Source: Candidatus Bathyarchaeia archaeon (GTDB taxonomy: Archaea; Thermoproteota; Bathyarchaeia; Bathyarchaeales; DTEX01). From it: 64,000 bases of DNA. Both the position numbers and the translations under genes were made by a program. The stretch covers positions 46,797-110,796 of the forward strand of contig JAWAXF010000002.1 of the NCBI GenBank assembly GCA_038897035.1, read 5' to 3'. The notes beneath the pieces were generated by a model. It made no database searches. It was not told where the DNA came from and saw nothing but the letters and a program-made list of their open reading frames with translations. Each line of letters opens with the position of its first letter. Within the stretch, counting starts at the first letter, position 1. Positions 5,928 through 43,751 of the stretch are shown piece by piece.

Positions 5928-8696
5928 TTGTTAATGTCGTTCTCTATGGATAGAAAGTCTTATAAATTTTTATTGTGGAAAAATGTCTTGGGTGTAATTA
6001 TGTTGGGGAATAAGATGAGAATTTTAGCGGGGGCTTTGCTGGTTTTACTGTTCCTAGGAATTCTCATGTCAGAGATTCCAGTCTCATACGCCCAGGTGCC
6101 AAAGGGTCCTTGGGTTGATGAAGTTGTATTCTCCGTAGAAACGGATGAGGCGAAGACCGTAGACATGCTACTTAAGAACGAGATACAAGTATACTTTAGA
6201 GATATAAGAGACTCAGAGCTATTTAAGAGGGTAAAGGCTTCGCCAGACCTCTGGTATGTTACGTCTTTTGGGCTATACTTTGAATTAACATTTAACCCCG
6301 TAGGGCCAGAGTTTCCTGCAACTGGCAAGTTGAATCCATTCTCAGTCCCACGGATAAGGGAAGCAATAAACTACTTGGTTGACAGAAAATATATCTGCGA
6401 CGAGATAATGGCTGGGATGGCTGTACCTAAGTACACAGTTTTAACACCAGCCTTCCCAGAGTACGCAAGATATGCGGATGTGGTTAGGGAGATTGAAAAG
6501 GAGTATAGTTATAATTTTGAAAAGGCTAGGGAAATTATCACTGAGGAGATGATTAAGCTCGGCGCCGAGCTAAGAGATGGGAAATGGTACTATAAGGGTG
6601 AACCAGTTACGATAATATTCCTTGTTAGAGTTGAAGATCAGAGGAGACCAATAGGCGATTATGTGGCCTCACAGCTCGAGAAGCTGGGCTTCACAGTTGA
6701 TAGACAGTATAAAACTAGTAGAGAGGCAGCGCCAATATGGATAAGAGGTAACCCGGCTGATGGGAAATGGCACATTTACACCGGCGGATGGATTGTAACC
6801 GCGGTTTCCAGGGATGATGCAGATAACTTTGGCTATTTTTACACGCCAAGAGGCGCTATGGGCCCCTTATGGAGCGCTTATAAGCCAGCACCAGAATTCG
6901 ATTACGTGGCTGGTAAGTTATGGGCCAGAGATTTTAGAACCATCGAGGAAAGAAACGACCTCATGAAGAAAGCCTTAACACTTTCAATGAAGGATTCTGT
7001 AAGAGTATGGCTGGTTAATCAGATAGCTCCCTGGCCTGCTAGAAAAGAGGTATCGCTAACGTATGATCTGGCAGCGGGCTTCTCTGGTGCAAGATTATGG
7101 CCATACACTATTAAATATGTCGATAAAGCTGGCGGCACAATTAAAATAATGTCCACGGACCTGCTTGTAGATTCGATAAATCCAGTTGGAGGAAGCAACT
7201 GGGTATATGATGCCATGTTCTATCGGGCGCTATCCGACCCAGCCGTTATACCAGACCCATTCACTGGGCTCTACTGGCCTCAGAGAGTTAAGAAGGCAGA
7301 GGTCTATGCTGAGAAAGGGTTGCCTCTTGGAGTTACACTGGATTGGGTTTCCCTGAAATTTGTTGATGAGATAACTGTGCCAACAGATGCATGGTATGAC
7401 TGGGATCCGGTGAAGCAGGAAATAATCTATGCTCCTCCTGGAACAAAAGCAAAAACAAAGACCGTGGTTTACTATGATGAGAACCTATTTAACACGAAGT
7501 TCCATGATGGAAGTAAGCTCTCACTAGCGGACATATTATTCGATTATATACTGACTTTTGATGTAGCTAAGCCTGAAAGCCCAGTATATGATGAATCAAT
7601 TGTTCCCGCGTTTGAGGCCTTCAGAGAATACTTTAAGGGCTTTAAGATAGTGAGCACGAACCCGTTAGTCATAGAATACTACTCAGATATGTTATATCTG
7701 GATGCCGAGTGGATAGTTGCTGAGGCTGCGACAAGGTTCTATCCGGAGGATCAAACTCTGCAGTGTCCTTCTCCATGGCATATGGTTGCCATCGGTTGGC
7801 TGGCTGAAGCAGATAAGATGCTGGCCTTCACGGCTGATAAGGCTGAGAGCCTTAAAGTTGAATGGATGAGCTATGTTGCAGGCCCCTCAATACCAATACT
7901 GGCCGAATACTTGGAGAAGGCTATTAGGGAGAAATTTATACCCTATAAGAACGTGCTTGGCAAGTATGTTAGCGAGGCGGAAGCCCTAGAGAGATATAAT
8001 AATCTAAAGAAATGGTATAGCGCGAAGGGCCACTTCCTCATCGGCAATGGTCCATTTTACCTAGATAAAGTTGACCCGACCGCTAGGATAGTTGTGCTAA
8101 AGGCCAATAGGGAATTCATCGATCCAGCTGATAAATGGCTTAAATTCTCTAAGCCAATGATACCGGAAGTTAAAATTGCCGCTGCGCCCACAATTGTACC
8201 GGGCTTACCTGCGGAGATCACGATTTCAGTAACATTTGAGGGCAAGCCATATGGAAAAGCGGACATGAGCTACGTTAAGTATATGATTACCAGCCCAACA
8301 GCAACCTTGACCGGAACAGCTGAGGCTGTGGCAGATGGAAAATGGGTTATTAAGCTCAAGTCGGAGGAGACAGCGCTATTAGCTGCTGGGGCGGTTAGCA
8401 TAAATGTAATAGCTGTCTCCAAATTGGTTGGTATGCCGGTGTCTGTGAGCGGAACAGCTATGATCATGAGTGAGACAGAATATCTGATGAGCGAGCTAGC
8501 AAAGGCTAAAGCCGATTATGAAGTAAAGCTGTCGGATCTAAAAACTGGGCTGGAAAGGAGAATTAATGAGATTAATGCGAGGATTGATGAACTAAAGGAT
8601 GCAATCGGCACGGTTACGACGATTATGTGGATTAGTATAGTAGCCATAATAATTTCTATAGTGGCGATAATACTCCCAATACTAAGAAAGAAGTAA
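5928..8696 (+). CDS. ABC transporter substrate-binding protein (family 5, peptide/oligosaccharide type) with C-terminal stalk and membrane anchor
   Basis: Likely start at 6015 (MRILAGALLVLLFLGIL signal-like segment). The body resembles Opp/Dpp-type SBPs. The C-terminus has a beta-rich segment, a coiled-coil-like stretch (LAKAKADYEVKLSDLKTGLERRINEINARIDELKD) and a hydrophobic helix ending in RKK. It lies first in an operon with two permeases and two ATPases. Confidence 0.8.
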   Translation: MLMSFSMDRKSYKFLLWKNVLGVIMLGNKMRILAGALLVLLFLGILMSEIPVSYAQVPKGPWVDEVVFSVETDEAKTVDMLLKNEIQVYFRDIRDSELFKRVKASPDLWYVTSFGLYFELTFNPVGPEFPATGKLNPFSVPRIREAINYLVDRKYICDEIMAGMAVPKYTVLTPAFPEYARYADVVREIEKEYSYNFEKAREIITEEMIKLGAELRDGKWYYKGEPVTIIFLVRVEDQRRPIGDYVASQLEKLGFTVDRQYKTSREAAPIWIRGNPADGKWHIYTGGWIVTAVSRDDADNFGYFYTPRGAMGPLWSAYKPAPEFDYVAGKLWARDFRTIEERNDLMKKALTLSMKDSVRVWLVNQIAPWPARKEVSLTYDLAAGFSGARLWPYTIKYVDKAGGTIKIMSTDLLVDSINPVGGSNWVYDAMFYRALSDPAVIPDPFTGLYWPQRVKKAEVYAEKGLPLGVTLDWVSLKFVDEITVPTDAWYDWDPVKQEIIYAPPGTKAKTKTVVYYDENLFNTKFHDGSKLSLADILFDYILTFDVAKPESPVYDESIVPAFEAFREYFKGFKIVSTNPLVIEYYSDMLYLDAEWIVAEAATRFYPEDQTLQCPSPWHMVAIGWLAEADKMLAFTADKAESLKVEWMSYVAGPSIPILAEYLEKAIREKFIPYKNVLGKYVSEAEALERYNNLKKWYSAKGHFLIGNGPFYLDKVDPTARIVVLKANREFIDPADKWLKFSKPMIPEVKIAAAPTIVPGLPAEITISVTFEGKPYGKADMSYVKYMITSPTATLTGTAEAVADGKWVIKLKSEETALLAAGAVSINVIAVSKLVGMPVSVSGTAMIMSETEYLMSELAKAKADYEVKLSDLKTGLERRINEINARIDELKDAIGTVTTIMWISIVAIIISIVAIILPILRKK

Positions 8697-28573: not shown

Positions 28574-29008
28574 GTGAATTTTATGGGGCATTTAGAGGTT
28601 AGGGGGCGGAGGGAGTTCCTGTTTAGGCTCCCTTATGACTCGGATCTCCTACTGGCATTAAAAGACTTGGCTAAAAAGCTCGATGTGAAGACCGGAGTAT
28701 TCGTTTTGTTGGGGGCACTGAAGAGCGCGACTATACTATATTACATGCAGGAGGAAAAGAAGTATGCAAAGATTTCGCTCGACTTCCCCCTCGAAATAGC
28801 CTCCGGAGTTGGGAATATTGCTATGATGGGTGATGATGTGCTCATACATACGCACGTCGTGCTCTCGGATAGGGATGGGAGGTGCTATGGAGGCCACCTA
28901 TCTGAGGGCTCAAGGGTATTCTCATGTGAAGTCTATTTAAGGGAGCTATCGCCGACAGTGCATAGAAAATACGACGAGCTCACAGGCCTAAACCTCCTTG
29001 ACATATAG
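28574..29008 (+). CDS. PPC (DUF296) domain DNA-binding-type protein
   Basis: The pattern REFLFRLPYDSDLL..L...GVFVLLGALKSATILYY...GNIAMMGDDVLIHTHVVLSD..G.CYGGHL is typical of the PPC/DUF296 fold. Probable ATG start at 28583. Confidence 0.7.
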   Translation: MNFMGHLEVRGRREFLFRLPYDSDLLLALKDLAKKLDVKTGVFVLLGALKSATILYYMQEEKKYAKISLDFPLEIASGVGNIAMMGDDVLIHTHVVLSDRDGRCYGGHLSEGSRVFSCEVYLRELSPTVHRKYDELTGLNLLDI

Positions 29009-29184
29009 GGTCTGCCCACTCGGCTTCTACGGGGCAGCTCAAACCTCAAAGCAAGATAATATATCCTTTGTGGTGGCTAGCCCCATGAGTCTGCCTTCTG
29101 GTGGGAGGGCTATCCCATATGTATATAAAAGCGGCGCTGTAAGGTCCCCTCGGAGTGGCCCCTAAGCGCCCTATCCCCCTCAGG

Positions 29185-29457
29185 CTATGTGACGTATATA
29201 AACTTGGCATCTGCTGGTATGCGAAGCTTACCAATTGACGCTGGCGATAATGGATATACTATATACTTGCCTGAGGGGAGCGAGATGCTTAGTACGAGCG
29301 CAACCCTATACCTAAGCATATACCCATGAGAACAGCCTACGGAGAACCTTTTCCTAGGCAACATATTTTCCACGTATTTCTCTCCACGATAGAAAACCTT
29401 TCTATATTCTGGGCTAGCACACGCAATAATATCAATCTTCATCCCTATATCCCTCAC
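29185..29457 (-). CDS. hypothetical ORF, possibly a decayed gene continuing in another frame (29046-29234)
   Basis: A 90-aa ORF whose 3-prime end overlaps a second 62-aa minus-strand ORF in a different frame. No motif recognised. Confidence 0.2.
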   Translation of the reverse strand: MRDIGMKIDIIACASPEYRKVFYRGEKYVENMLPRKRFSVGCSHGYMLRYRVALVLSISLPSGKYIVYPLSPASIGKLRIPADAKFIYVT

Positions 29458-29839
29458 CCATATTATAGTAGTCCTGCTAACGTGGTCACTTATGGTAAAG
29501 AGCCCAGCAGCCCATCAGCCTATAAAAACAAAGGAAAAAGGATCCAAGTTACCATGAATCATGAATAGCTGAGCGACGAGGTCTAGATCTAAAATGGATA
29601 AAATATAGCAACCATTTCAAGGCTCTCAAACAAGCTCCTCAATATGCTGATGAATATAAGGGCGCCCTTAAGACCTTTAAAGGCGATAACCGGAATAAAG
29701 GGAATCTTTCCAGTCCACAATTTATCAAAGATTAAATTAGGAATAATATATCGAGCAACATTCTAAATATACCCTCTCCTCTCCCCCGCTTGAAGCCATT
29801 TTTTCTTCCAAGATGACTTTTAATGAAATCCTGATTCAA

Positions 29840-29863
29840 TTCTTAATGTACGAAGATTAAGAA
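29840..29863 (-). terminator. perfect 8-bp hairpin just downstream of tRNA-Lys
   Basis: TTCTTAAT (29840-29847) and ATTAAGAA (29856-29863) flank an 8-nt loop, 13 nt past the tRNA 3-prime end. Confidence 0.3.
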
Positions 29864-29875
29864 CTGCTCTCTTTG

Positions 29876-29953
29876 TGGCGGGCCCGGGGGGAGTTGAACC
29901 CCCGACCCCCGGGTTAAAAGCCCGGTGCTCTGTCCTGGCTGAGCTACGGGCCC
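29876..29953 (-). tRNA. tRNA-Lys (anticodon UUU), CCA encoded
   Basis: Hand fold: acceptor GGGCCCG/CGGGCCC, D stem GCTC/GAGC, anticodon stem CCGGG/CCCGG with loop CTTTTAA, T arm GGGGG-TTCAACT-CCCCC. Confidence 0.9.
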
Positions 29954-29968
29954 CAACCTTAATTTGAT

Positions 29969-30002
29969 GAATAAAGCCAGATTTATGGCTTTCTGTTACC
30001 AT
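29969..30002. repeat. 34-nt repeat, copy 1 (29 of 35 aligned positions identical to 30916-30949)
   Basis: GAATAAAGCCAGATTTATGGCTTTCTGTTACCAT versus GAAAGAAGCCCAATTTATGGTTTACTGTTACCAT. On the minus strand, copy 1 lies 16-49 nt upstream of the tRNA-Lys 5-prime end and contains CCATAAAT. Confidence 0.7.
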
Positions 30003-30150
30003 CACTTTCCGCGCATTTTGTGTATGATGATAGAGGAGCGTTTTCAGAGGCGCTTTTGGCGAAAGAAGGCTAATGTAGGGTTCTCTATTACCATTGGGGA
30101 TGGTAACAGATACACCTTTTTCAGCCTTCATTTTCCCAATGGCGCCATTT

Positions 30151-30378
30151 TCAGGCTTCCCCAAAAAGTTTGTATATCCCTTCGCCTTCATCAAGCCGCC
30201 CAATATAGCACCATTTAACCTCTGTAGAAAGAAATAGGCTCGAATAGCTTTGCATTTTGCTCTTTCTATGGGCTTTAACCTCGAACGCTATTATCATATT
30301 ATCCTTAACGGCAAAAACGTCTGGCAGAGGCTTATTCGCCTCCTCAATTGGCTTAAACCGCCATAACTTATAACTGCT
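30151..30378 (-). pseudogene. PD-(D/E)XK nuclease (Hjc-like) gene fragment lacking a start
   Basis: My translation of the open frame gives SSYKLWRFKPIEEANKPLPDVFAVKDNMIIAFEVKAHRKSK...IYKLFGEA*. PDVFAVKDNMIIAFEVKA matches the catalytic D...(E/D)xK strand pair of Holliday-junction-resolvase-type nucleases. There is no N-terminal part and no in-frame ATG upstream of the motif. Confidence 0.35.
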
Positions 30379-30549
30379 TTAAGCAGGCAAAAATTTACGC
30401 TAAAGATTTATGCGCTATGCCAGTAATATCATCATTGCTTAAGAGGATTGTTAGGGAGAGGGAGAACGGGCTTCTCGACTGGGTTCACGCGGTTAAGAGA
30501 CTTAAGAGATAGGGTTTTCCAGGCGCTAAAAAGATCATGAAGTAAGAAA

Positions 30550-30896
30550 ATGGATAGTTTTTCTATCCATCACTTAGAAATAACATTTCACATGAGGTCT
30601 CCCGGTTTTTCTGGCGGTTATGGCGGCGTTATAGGGCGGGGGCATGGATTTCAGATAGAAAAACTGTCCAAAATAGGGGATTAAGTCTTCCCCAAGAGGC
30701 TTCCACGCGGGTTGATGGACAAACTTTTTAGCCATCCTAAAAATGCAGTTAACCTTACGGCCCTAAGGTTAACAAAAAGCGCCCCTCCAGGAGCGGAAAC
30801 GTTAACCCTTTCTTACATAAGGTTAAATAATCCGGGAACCAGCAGACAAAAGTCCACTTATGCCAAATGATGACATAAGTCTTTCCTGAGAATAAA
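30550..30896 (+). repeat. hairpin-rich, inverted-repeat-bounded element, copy A (MITE-like or structured RNA)
   Basis: The left end has the hairpin ATGGATAG-TTTTT-CTATCCAT, followed by ATCACTTAGAAATAAC. The right end is GTCTTTCCTGAGAATAA. Internal hairpins are at 30676-30693, 30748-30773 (10-bp perfect stem GTTAACCTTA) and 30857-30879. The first ~150 nt align with the reverse complement of 43590-43739. Confidence 0.5.
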
Positions 30897-30915
30897 TTTT
30901 AGAGACGTAATCAAA

Positions 30916-30949
30916 GAAAGAAGCCCAATTTATGGTTTACTGTTACCAT
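30916..30949. repeat. 34-nt repeat, copy 2
   Basis: See copy 1. It lies between the YdhR-like gene stop and element A. Confidence 0.7.
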
Positions 30950-31077
30950 GGAGACATAACGGGCCCTCTTTTCTGCCTTAAAAATTCTTGGGTTTTGCTG
31001 TTTTCTTACTTCTCTCGGCACTTTTATTGTGTCCTTGGTAATTGTGTATTACAAAAAGATTGTGGTGCGAATTATGA

Positions 31078-31425
31078 TTATTCTATGGGCCCATGGGTGA
31101 TCTTTGTAGGTTCGCGCAATATCTCGAATATCTTTACTTCAAGGTCGCTTATAGTTGGGTTCTTTTTTAATGCCGAGAATAGCTCTCCCCTAAGATATGT
31201 CTCCACTGAAGCCTCATCTTTAAACAAGTAAATTCCAGAGAGTAGGCTTTCAGATTCATTTATGAGCCAAATCTTCCATAAAAGTCCCTGGACTTCACCA
31301 CCAGGTCTGAATTTTGGAGCGACTTCTAAGATAGATTTTTCAAGCTCAGCCCTTGGTACTTTAAATTTGAACCTCACCTGAAGTACTCTCATTCTAGGCA
31401 CCAAAAAAGTATTTTTAGAGCCCAC
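31078..31425 (-). CDS. YdhR-like putative monooxygenase (dimeric alpha-beta barrel)
   Basis: GLLWKIWLINESESLLSGIYLFKDEASVETYL resembles the YdhR signature (GFLWKVW...GGIYLF.DE.SA.AYL) as I recall it. Confidence 0.65.
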   Translation of the reverse strand: MGSKNTFLVPRMRVLQVRFKFKVPRAELEKSILEVAPKFRPGGEVQGLLWKIWLINESESLLSGIYLFKDEASVETYLRGELFSALKKNPTISDLEVKIFEILREPTKITHGPIE

Positions 31426-31517
31426 TTTTTAAGTCTTTTCTGAAGAACCGAGAATTTAAGACGTGAGACGGCGTTTCTCTTTTCTCCATGTTTGAGGGTT
31501 ATTTAAGTACAACTTAA

Positions 31518-31691
31518 ATGAGCGCGGAGGGAGCCGCGTTAAACGTTAAAATCTGCACTAATCCAACCGTCAAAATGGCCTTAAATCCTCCGAGTCTTAG
31601 CGCCTCCTTATCAGACTTCAGGGAATACTATAATGATGACTTTGAAATCGTAAGGGACTTTGAGAGAATAAGAGATCAATATATCATTTAA
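31518..31691 (+). CDS. possible small ORF (57 aa)
   Basis: ATG at 31518 to TAA at 31689-31691 by my translation (MSAEGAALNVKICTNPTV...FERIRDQYII). It falls below the ORF-track cutoff and has no motif. Confidence 0.15.
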   Translation: MSAEGAALNVKICTNPTVKMALNPPSLSASLSDFREYYNDDFEIVRDFERIRDQYII

Positions 31692-31742
31692 TACTGCCAA
31701 AATATCTAGAGAGGGCTTCTCTTATTCTACTATATGGAATGT

Positions 31743-32495
31743 TTATCCAAGAGCGCTTGTAATTCCAGTAACCTCTTCGAAGTCCATGTAGTCTCCGCCA
31801 ACAACCTTGAGTTTCGCCTCGATTCTCTTGCCTTTAAGCTCTATCACATTATATGAGTTTAGAAAGAAGCCACGTAGCTTCTCGCATGAGATGCTTCCAG
31901 CATGGAGCATCTGTATATCTTCTATTCGCCATCTCCATGGTCTATGCCGATGCCCGCACAGAACCAAGTCTACCTTCCCCTTTATGAGGGTTCTGAGTAC
32001 GTCGCCTGCATCCAAGACCGTGATCTGGTCCGCGCCAGTATCCGGAACCGGGACTATGTGGTGGTGTATGGCCACAATCTTTACGTGATTCTTATAGTTC
32101 TCCAGCGTGCTTTCAAGCCAAAGGTTCTGTCTATGCCCAACTTCCCCATCATCTCTGTCGGGGCGCGCGCTACTCAGCACGATCATTATGACATCGCCAA
32201 TTTCAGTAACCTGGTTAAATGGGAAAAGCTGTTTAAAAAGTAGATAGCCCGTGGATCTGTAGTCGTGGTTCCCGCTAATGTAAATAACTTTTTCAGTCTT
32301 TAGCCGCTTAAACTCTTCACGGGCCATTTTAAACTCTGAGAGTATACCATTTTCTGTTATATCACCAGTCACCACAACCACATCTGGTGAGAGGGCATTT
32401 ATTTCATCCATAGCGGTGTGAAAAACCCCGTAATTAAACATCGGCCCACAGTGGACGTCTGAAATCTGAACGATAAGCATGGGTATCCCTCCCAA
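31743..32495 (-). CDS. metallophosphoesterase (calcineurin-like)
   Basis: Motifs ISDVHCG, VTGDITENG, GNHD, AIHHH and CGHRH. Confidence 0.8.
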   Translation of the reverse strand: MGGIPMLIVQISDVHCGPMFNYGVFHTAMDEINALSPDVVVVTGDITENGILSEFKMAREEFKRLKTEKVIYISGNHDYRSTGYLLFKQLFPFNQVTEIGDVIMIVLSSARPDRDDGEVGHRQNLWLESTLENYKNHVKIVAIHHHIVPVPDTGADQITVLDAGDVLRTLIKGKVDLVLCGHRHRPWRWRIEDIQMLHAGSISCEKLRGFFLNSYNVIELKGKRIEAKLKVVGGDYMDFEEVTGITSALG

Positions 32496-43514: not shown

Positions 43515-43529
43515 CCTGTTGATGCTTTT

Positions 43530-43739
43530 GTATCCACTTAAATAAAGACGATTTTTCTGACCGAAAACTCCTAAAGCCCTTTGGCGAGAAAAATTTTCGC
43601 CAATTTCTTAGACAGTTTTTTCATCCAAGCCAATGGATAGGAACTTGGCGGAAGATAAAAAGATTGGGGGCGCCAAAGGAGAAAACCGGAGCCCTTATGA
43701 ATTTTGTCTTTTCCTGAGGATAGACCATTTTTCTATCCC
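43530..43739 (-). repeat. hairpin-rich, inverted-repeat-bounded element, copy B (inverted relative to copy A)
   Basis: It fills the spacer between convergent hdrA and tal. The reverse complement begins with the hairpin GGGATAG-AAAAATGGT-CTATCC followed by TCAGGAAAAGAC. The other end is GTCTTTATTTAAGTGGATAC. The internal hairpin GGCGA/TCGCC (43583-43601) sits where copy A has GGGGA/TCCCC. Confidence 0.5.
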
Positions 43740-43751
43740 TTGATAAGGCAA

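Follow-up and report, generated by a model that had tools for sequence, protein, structure and literature searches.

The stretch at positions 30550-30896 of this Bathyarchaeia DNA (hereafter the element) raises a simple question: what is a hairpin-rich segment, placed where no gene is apparent? The initial annotation had read it as one of two copies of a MITE-like repeat or, alternatively, as a structured non-coding RNA. We analyzed it within the window, that is, the whole stretch of DNA under study (64,000 nt). All of the hairpins that had been described in the element were found in their places by direct reading, and the interval 30219-30931, which had been described as free of ORFs, indeed contains no ORF of at least 60 aa; the longest one has 53 aa, and an exact look-up showed that it is not on record. 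The explanation that we favor is that the element is a single-copy, non-coding relic of acquired or rearranged DNA, and that the hairpin modules on its minus strand are terminators or the leftovers of terminators; we give this explanation about an even chance of being correct. The features on which the argument draws are collected in Table 1.

Table 1. Features of the element, of the decay zone around it and of the region at 43.5 kb (positions refer to the window).
Feature	Position	Strand	Description	Basis
Hairpin ATGGATAG-TTTTT-CTATCCAT	30550-30570	-	minus-strand 3' side: TTTTCTTACTTC	direct reading and terminator scan
GATAGAAAAACTGTCCA	30654-30670	.	degenerate inverted copy of the 30550-30570 hairpin; 94% complementary to 30551-30567	
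Hairpin GGGGA/TCCCC	30676-30693	-	minus-strand 3' side: TATTTTGGACAGTTTTTC	direct reading and terminator scan
Perfect 10-bp hairpin GTTAACCTTA-cggccc-TAAGGTTAAC	30748-30773	-	minus-strand 3' side: TGCATTTTTA	
6-bp G+C-rich hairpin CGCUCC-UGGA-GGGGCG	30780-30795	-	G-U pair on the minus strand only; then CTTTTTG	
Second TTAACC/GGTTAA hairpin	30802-30826	.	75% copy of the 30748-30773 unit, 54 nt downstream on the + strand	
Hairpin ACTTATG.../...CATAAGT	30856-30881	-	9-10 pairs (CTTATG/CATAAG at 30857-30879); then GGACTTTTGT	
GTCTTTCCTGAGAATAA	30880-30896			direct reading
PCC/DUF296 gene	28583-29008			
Frameshifted C-terminal remnant of a ~198-aa protein	29040-29320	+		tblastn E = 2e-15
tRNA-Lys(UUU)	29876-29953	-		
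R1	29961-30008	-	8-55 nt upstream of the tRNA-Lys 5' end; presumed tRNA-Lys promoter region	
R2 (30053-30100) and Rinv (30094-30141)	30053-30141	.	imperfect palindrome with 40-nt arms, centre near 30097	
Truncated Hjc/Hje-like Holliday-junction resolvase remnant	30151-30375	-		Pfam PF01870, PHROG 6591, PDB
R3	30908-30955	-	on the minus strand, 12-20 nt ahead of the element; keeps CCATAAAT (TATA-like)	
C-terminal remnant, 57 aa (44 align)	31518-31691	+		E = 3e-11; HMM E = 1.2e-10
Region B (the 'other copy' of the initial annotation)	43574-43729	-	between two convergent genes; marginal similarity to 30549-30702 in inverted orientation	

The cluster of hairpins in the element is beyond chance and strand-biased. 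Of the six terminator-like sites (a hairpin with a T-rich tail) detected in 29000-31600, five are minus-strand sites within 30549-30881, whereas the whole window averages 0.32 such sites per kb per strand. The element holds five modules in 332 nt, and every other 350-nt stretch of the window holds two at most. Runs of at least 4 T on the minus strand number 6 in 366 nt (mean, 1.74), five of the six following a hairpin, and the T-rich tail starts 0-2 nt past each minus-strand hairpin of the element. In two of the stems (30780-30795 and 30856-30881) G-U pairs, as read from the sequence, are restricted to the minus strand. The predicted folds are stronger than those of dinucleotide shuffles on both strands, with z-scores of -2.7 for the plus and -2.4 for the minus strand. 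When positions of 347 nt were sampled across the window (92 in total), the one covering the element ranked second in structure, the first being the position with tRNA-Lys and the R2/Rinv palindrome.

Examination of the surroundings placed the element in a decay zone of ~2.7 kb (29009-31700) around tRNA-Lys(UUU), which holds three truncated gene remnants and four local repeats of ~44 nt. The ~198-aa protein represented by the leftmost remnant is found intact after the PCC gene in two relatives (L007 and L010). The remnant at the right corresponds to the C-terminal 44 residues of a protein of 167 aa, intact in two others (L014 and L016); an exhaustive search with the 57-aa remnant retrieved spurious repeat proteins only. 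The third remnant matches the Pfam Hjc family PF01870 with E = 3.3e-5 (24.2 bits, the cut-off being 21.1 bits) and the Holliday junction resolvases of PHROG 6591 at 1.5e-4, and its best 4 PDB matches are all Hje or Hjc. It retains the PD...EVK motif and has a gene-like codon usage, and a word-index search for the closest homologue of this Hjc-like fragment gave no candidate. The ORF-free gap is explained in part by a dead resolvase gene; the context that accounts for it best is this zone of truncated genes and local repeats beside tRNA-Lys.

The four local repeats (R1, R2, Rinv and R3) were found at this locus only, in a search that covered the window and 315 kb of related loci. R1 and R3 share 82% identity over 34 nt (E = 0.003 in blastn), and their aligned parts, 29969-30002 and 30916-30949, form direct repeats that bracket 947 bp, a segment that contains both the resolvase remnant and the hairpin-rich element. 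Such an arrangement beside a tRNA gene brings to mind the tRNA-linked integrated elements of archaea, among them SSV-type elements, pTN3-like elements and proviruses, and resolvase-type genes are common in viruses. Classical att sites overlap the tRNA gene, whereas the aligned part of R1 sits 16 nt upstream of tRNA-Lys, outside the gene, and the window holds no repeat derived from a tRNA. Neither an integrase nor a remnant of one was detected in six-frame Pfam searches of 29300-29880 and 30370-31080 or in a six-frame search of 29954-31080 against 5.8 billion proteins; the Hjc-like fragment is the sole remnant detected. The failure to find an integrase, or any other clear gene of a mobile element, speaks against a history as an integrated element.

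Comparison with other genomes delimits the same zone. We compared related Bathyarchaeia loci retrieved through the neighboring Metallophos gene (24 loci) or through the PCC gene (four loci); the element is absent from all of these, and synteny with every relative examined stops at both edges of the decay zone. The metallophosphoesterase (31743-32480, minus strand) is encoded identically in the Candidatus Bathyarchaeia MAG GCA_964474615.1 and in several metagenomes of hot-spring type, and NCBI assigns the PCC/DUF296 protein to Candidatus Bathyarchaeia as well. The 13 copies of the locus that we were able to retrieve are 99.9-100% identical, with few SNPs, all of them outside the element; they therefore represent one population, and provide evidence neither for nor against conservation. 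Records of a 31-aa ORF that lies 38 nt left of the element come from 7 contigs, all of the same locus.

In the explanation that we favor, DNA that was acquired or rearranged, possibly an integrated element that has since eroded, would have been left to decay beside tRNA-Lys. What the element still carries is a row of hairpins, each with a U4-U5 tract behind it on the minus strand; ydhR (upstream) and tRNA-Lys (downstream) are encoded on this strand too. The modules may then stop read-through transcription ahead of the tRNA promoter, whether they still work as stacked terminators or are the leftover terminators of genes now lost. Such a role is plausible since U-tracts of at least four, aided by aCPSF1, signal termination in archaea, a hairpin being not strictly required (PMC8716108). 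Archaeal U-tract terminators were described as working together with aCPSF1 (PMC8716108, PMC7515710). Because archaeal terminators need no hairpin, five hairpin/U-tract modules are more elaborate than termination requires. The direction of transcription, its termination and an origin from a mobile element are what we infer for this locus.

The alternative that survives best is a novel structured small RNA, produced from the minus strand of the element by way of a putative promoter in R3, with a start near 30900-30904. The arrangement upstream of tRNA-Lys provides the rationale for this reading: the TATA-like octamer CCATAAAT in R1 ends 28 nt before the mature tRNA-Lys 5' end, and R3, given its similarity to R1 over 34 nt, keeps both this octamer and a BRE-like AGTAAA, so that by its sequence R3 is a candidate promoter for the element. 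The other tRNA of the window is without such a motif. At its right edge (30896) the element ends where transcription is predicted to start, and on the minus strand the CTTTTTG that follows the 30780-30795 hairpin contains the first T5 run met past the putative R3 promoter. The predicted transcript would hold three to seven hairpins and would end at a U5 tract, giving it a length between ~125 nt (end at 30775) and ~370 nt (end near 30530). The strand-specificity of the modules, the G-U pairs that favor the minus strand and the second rank of the element among the sampled positions of the window are all in accordance with such an RNA.

Several observations stand against it. Searching the whole window with Rfam 15 retrieved only two tRNAs that reach the gathering score, and even at E <= 10 the interval 28900-31200 gave nothing but the tRNA and noise of 19 bits or less, so that no Rfam family is assigned to the element. 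Its G+C content (0.43) is under the window mean (0.45), as compared to 0.72 for tRNA-Lys. For the A+T-rich stems, folding is predicted to be marginal at 75 C and to be lost in all but one at 85 C, a temperature at which tRNA-Lys is predicted to stay folded; this sits badly with a functional RNA in a seeming hot-spring thermophile, the relatives coming from hot-spring bins and the springs being presumably hot enough to matter. Furthermore, nhmmer searches with the element, region B and the local repeat found no match in 315 kb of related-genome loci, and the two-sequence consensus fold of the element with region B is weak (-10.9 kcal/mol, with 3 pairs changed on both sides). We therefore regard a minus-strand small RNA as unlikely, if still worth serious consideration. 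The more specific proposal, that a duplicated tRNA-Lys promoter (R3) drives an undescribed, lineage-restricted Bathyarchaeia small RNA on the minus strand from ~30902 to 30775 or further, has at best a slim chance. A decayed copy of the tRNA downstream of R3 was also considered and rejected, its Smith-Waterman score being no better than that of shuffles.

If such an RNA does exist, its A+U-rich hairpins and U-tracts could make it a decoy or sponge for U-tract-binding factors (aCPSF1, Lsm), or, in another role, the stretch could act in cis as an insulator that protects the expression of tRNA-Lys. The duplication of a promoter would then have given rise to a new small RNA with multiple hairpins, and an uncultured archaeal lineage would offer a modest but concrete case of how a non-coding RNA is born.

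It is also conceivable, though in our judgment improbable, that what remains in the element is a decayed protein-coding gene, or several, with relatives so distant or so rare that they escape detection, the hairpins being incidental. The element does sit between three recognizable gene remnants, and the plus-strand frame that opens at 30550 spans 107 codons (30550-30870) with a single stop. In addition, tblastn with the 167-aa protein of a relative gave a match at 30744-30553 on the minus strand with E = 0.31. This match falls to E = 6.2 with the family profile, and at that value we rejected the idea that the 53-aa minus-strand ORF represents the N-terminal half of the truncated 167-aa gene in inverted form. 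Pfam, PHROGs and NCBIfam returned nothing for the element, nor did the six-frame search of 29954-31080 against the 5.8 billion proteins. The codon-usage score of the ORFs inside the element is ~0, as compared to 0.33 +/- 0.13 for real genes; the scores fall between those of real genes and those of wrong frames. Finally, five modules of hairpin and T-tract on one strand are not what decaying coding sequence would be expected to leave.

The reading with which the element was initially presented, in which 30550-30896 and 43515-43751 are diverged copies of a MITE-like element or belong to a dispersed repeat family, is in our estimation the least probable of all. It had been built on homology between the first ~150 nt of the element and the stretch at 43.5 kb, and this homology fails in formal alignment at conventional thresholds. 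With blastn (word size 7, E <= 10), 30200-30950 gave no match to the 43.5-kb region. Aligning 30549-30702 with 43729-43574 by nhmmer gave E = 0.057 (reciprocal, 0.074), which is not significant. The best Smith-Waterman alignment was in inverted orientation, the plus strand of the element against the minus strand of region B, and scored 19, a value matched by 3 of 500 shuffles and only 1-2 points over that of unrelated segments of the window. The similarity covers only the first ~155 nt of the element.

A few observations do point toward a relation between the two places. The element and region B are each other's best non-self nhmmer match, and three exact blocks (CTATCC, CCGGTTTT and AAAAACTGTC) are colinear in both, the best common block having its core at 30654-30670 (GATAGAAAAACTGTCCA). 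In the hairpin that lies past the last common block, one compensatory pair differs between the two. Moreover, a GGATAG...CTATCC hairpin occurs at two places only, the element and region B (expected number, 0.05). The loop of this hairpin, however, is TTTTT on the plus strand at both places, which contradicts the inverted colinearity of the other blocks, and GACAGTTTTT did not emerge as a general motif when the window was scanned. Region B itself is a spacer of the ordinary kind, flanked by convergent genes; a terminator-like hairpin follows the HdrA/MvhD-like gene there, and the region folds well on the plus strand only. We also considered whether the flanks of the element are decayed copies of the genes that flank region B; tblastn gave noise only, and this candidate was rejected.

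The other hallmarks of a MITE were likewise not recovered. The terminal inverted repeats that had been proposed are not borne out, since no inverted pair joins 30550-30590 to 30860-30900 (seed 6, search over 29950-31080); the two end sequences on which the proposal rested agree, by eye, at about 10 of 17 positions. No direct repeat that could represent a target-site duplication is present in the flanks tcatgaagtaagaaa (30535-30549) and attttagagacgtaa (30897-30911), and there is no transposase among the called genes of the window between 21.7 and 42.5 kb. Lacking terminal inverted repeats and a target-site duplication, and with its sole proposed second copy failing formal alignment at those thresholds, the element gives no footing to the repeat-element interpretation.

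Searches for further members of a family were also empty. Neither blastn nor nhmmer found a second copy of 30700-30896 anywhere in the window, and a third copy is absent from the window and from the related loci. Scanning exact patterns through sequence collections, we found 0 matches to the three-block pattern in contigs of one genome per species, 2 unrelated chance matches to the block-3 module pattern in JGI metagenome contigs, the source contig also not being recovered in either of these scans, and 0 matches to three exact patterns in the viral contigs of IMG/VR; these scans speak for other genomes, the copy number within the source genome being outside their reach. No match was obtained by blastn against phage and plasmid collections. 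Since the block and hairpin patterns were derived from the element and region B themselves, the fact that these two match them is no independent evidence of a family. A CRISPR mini-array, which might be suggested by the 54-nt period at which the palindromic hairpins start (30748, 30802 and 30856), was rejected, as its units are 75% alike (first versus second) or unrelated (third) and TRF finds no array.

We thus return to the element as a relic of acquired or rearranged DNA with terminators or their leftovers on its minus strand. On this explanation the result is mainly corrective: what looked like a MITE would be single-copy DNA within a hotspot of rearrangement and decay beside a tRNA gene. 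It would add one documented case of tRNA-adjacent genome erosion in the little-studied Bathyarchaeia of hot springs.

Set beside known systems, the element shows partial likeness to several. As in MITEs, of which the Sulfolobus SM1-SM4 elements are an example, it is ~350 bp long, non-coding, rich in structure and intergenic; unlike them, it is without terminal inverted repeats, a target-site duplication or a demonstrable second copy, and no cognate transposase was seen among the genes called at 21.7-42.5 kb. Composition screens by Klein et al. in 2002 reportedly found G+C-rich RNAs in A+T-rich hyperthermophiles. The element resembles the structured non-coding RNAs of hyperthermophiles in having several stem-loops in an ORF-free region, a possible promoter and U-tract ends, but differs from them in that its G+C content is not raised, its stems are predicted to be marginal at 75 C and nearly all melted by 85 C, and neither an Rfam match nor a conserved homologue was found.

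The remnants of tRNA-integrated elements differ from this locus in other respects: here the repeats are situated upstream of the tRNA without overlapping it, the search for an integrase fragment was negative, and the segment, only ~950 bp long, has no similarity to the phage, plasmid or IMG/VR sequences tested. The likeness lies in the adjacent tRNA, the imperfect direct repeats that bracket the segment, a decayed resolvase-type gene, the truncated host genes on the flanks and the absence of the segment from relatives. With archaeal U-tract terminators, the element shares its six runs of at least 4 T on the strand of the flanking ydhR and tRNA-Lys. Such terminators are normally single, stand at gene ends and need no hairpin; in the element, set against these and against intrinsic terminators of the bacterial type, five modules are stacked in 330 nt, distant from the ends of intact genes.

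The decay zone around the tRNA-Lys(UUU) gene is bordered by truncated genes, each with intact counterparts in related Bathyarchaeia (see the table). At the edge next to the PCC/DUF296 (PCC) gene, the N-terminal half of a gene for a probably membrane or secreted protein has been deleted; the gene at the opposite edge is a second truncated one, and a truncated resolvase-like remnant lies between them. This remnant may be either the sole hjc of the organism or an additional copy carried by an element. Several assemblies also call a 31-aa ORF (30417-30512, plus strand) as a gene; it has a high codon-usage score (0.49) and no family match. Like its neighbours it may be a piece of a gene, or it may encode a genuine micro-protein.

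Gene remnants of the decay zone and the hairpin in the 43.5-kb spacer (L007, L010, L014 and L016, loci of related Bathyarchaeia)
Feature	Position	Strand	Remarks
C-terminal remnant, frameshifted, of a ~198-aa protein	29040-29320	+	Intact gene after PCC in L007 (2042-2638) and L010 (3423-3926)
Hjc/Hje-like Holliday-junction resolvase remnant, truncated	30151-30375	-	PD...EVK motif present
C-terminal end only of a 167-aa protein, called as a 57-aa gene	31518-31691	+	Intact in L014 (6804-7307) and L016
10-bp hairpin TTGGCGAGAAAAATTTTCGCCAA, then T-runs	43581-43603	+	67 nt past the stop of an 810-aa HdrA/MvhD-like gene

In the related locus L008, whose PCC protein is 74% identical to that of the window, the next gene after PCC, on the opposite strand, is tRNA-Thr(CGU) (6693-6768), which shares 77% DNA identity with the window's tRNA-Lys and is followed 135 bp further on by a TrmI-like methyltransferase. 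The tRNA slot after PCC therefore seems to be conserved, and its surroundings not. Within tRNA-Lys itself, one ENA assembly (loci L006/L039) carries a G>A change (plus strand) at 29932; strains also differ by SNPs at 31043 and 32915, and none of the SNPs seen falls within the hairpin-rich element (30550-30896).

The local repeats R2 and Rinv together form an imperfect palindrome with 40-nt arms (30053-30141), the core of which (TTACCAT-tgggg-ATGGTAA) resembles the core site of a recombinase. Close to the centre of the palindrome, on its 3' side, lies the first base (30103) of an independent assembly, L041 (SRR5468567). The element and the repeat to its right, R3, are enclosed by a perfect 12-nt inverted repeat, GAAGTAAGAAAA (30539-30550) and TTTTCTTACTTC (31001-31012), with ~0.04 such pairs expected in 1.1 kb; an RNA covering both arms would have ends that pair.

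At 43.5 kb, where the initial annotation had proposed a second copy of the element, the spacer holding the tabulated hairpin has a fold z-score of -2.5 for the plus strand but of just -0.7 for the minus strand. This points to a structured 3' UTR or terminator after the HdrA/MvhD-like gene.

Near the right end of the element, the plus strand reads AUGAUGA, 12 nt and CUGA (30867-30889), with no Rfam match to this C/D-box-like motif. This resembles the order C box, guide, D' box in an archaeal C/D-box sRNA; no C'/D half comes after it.
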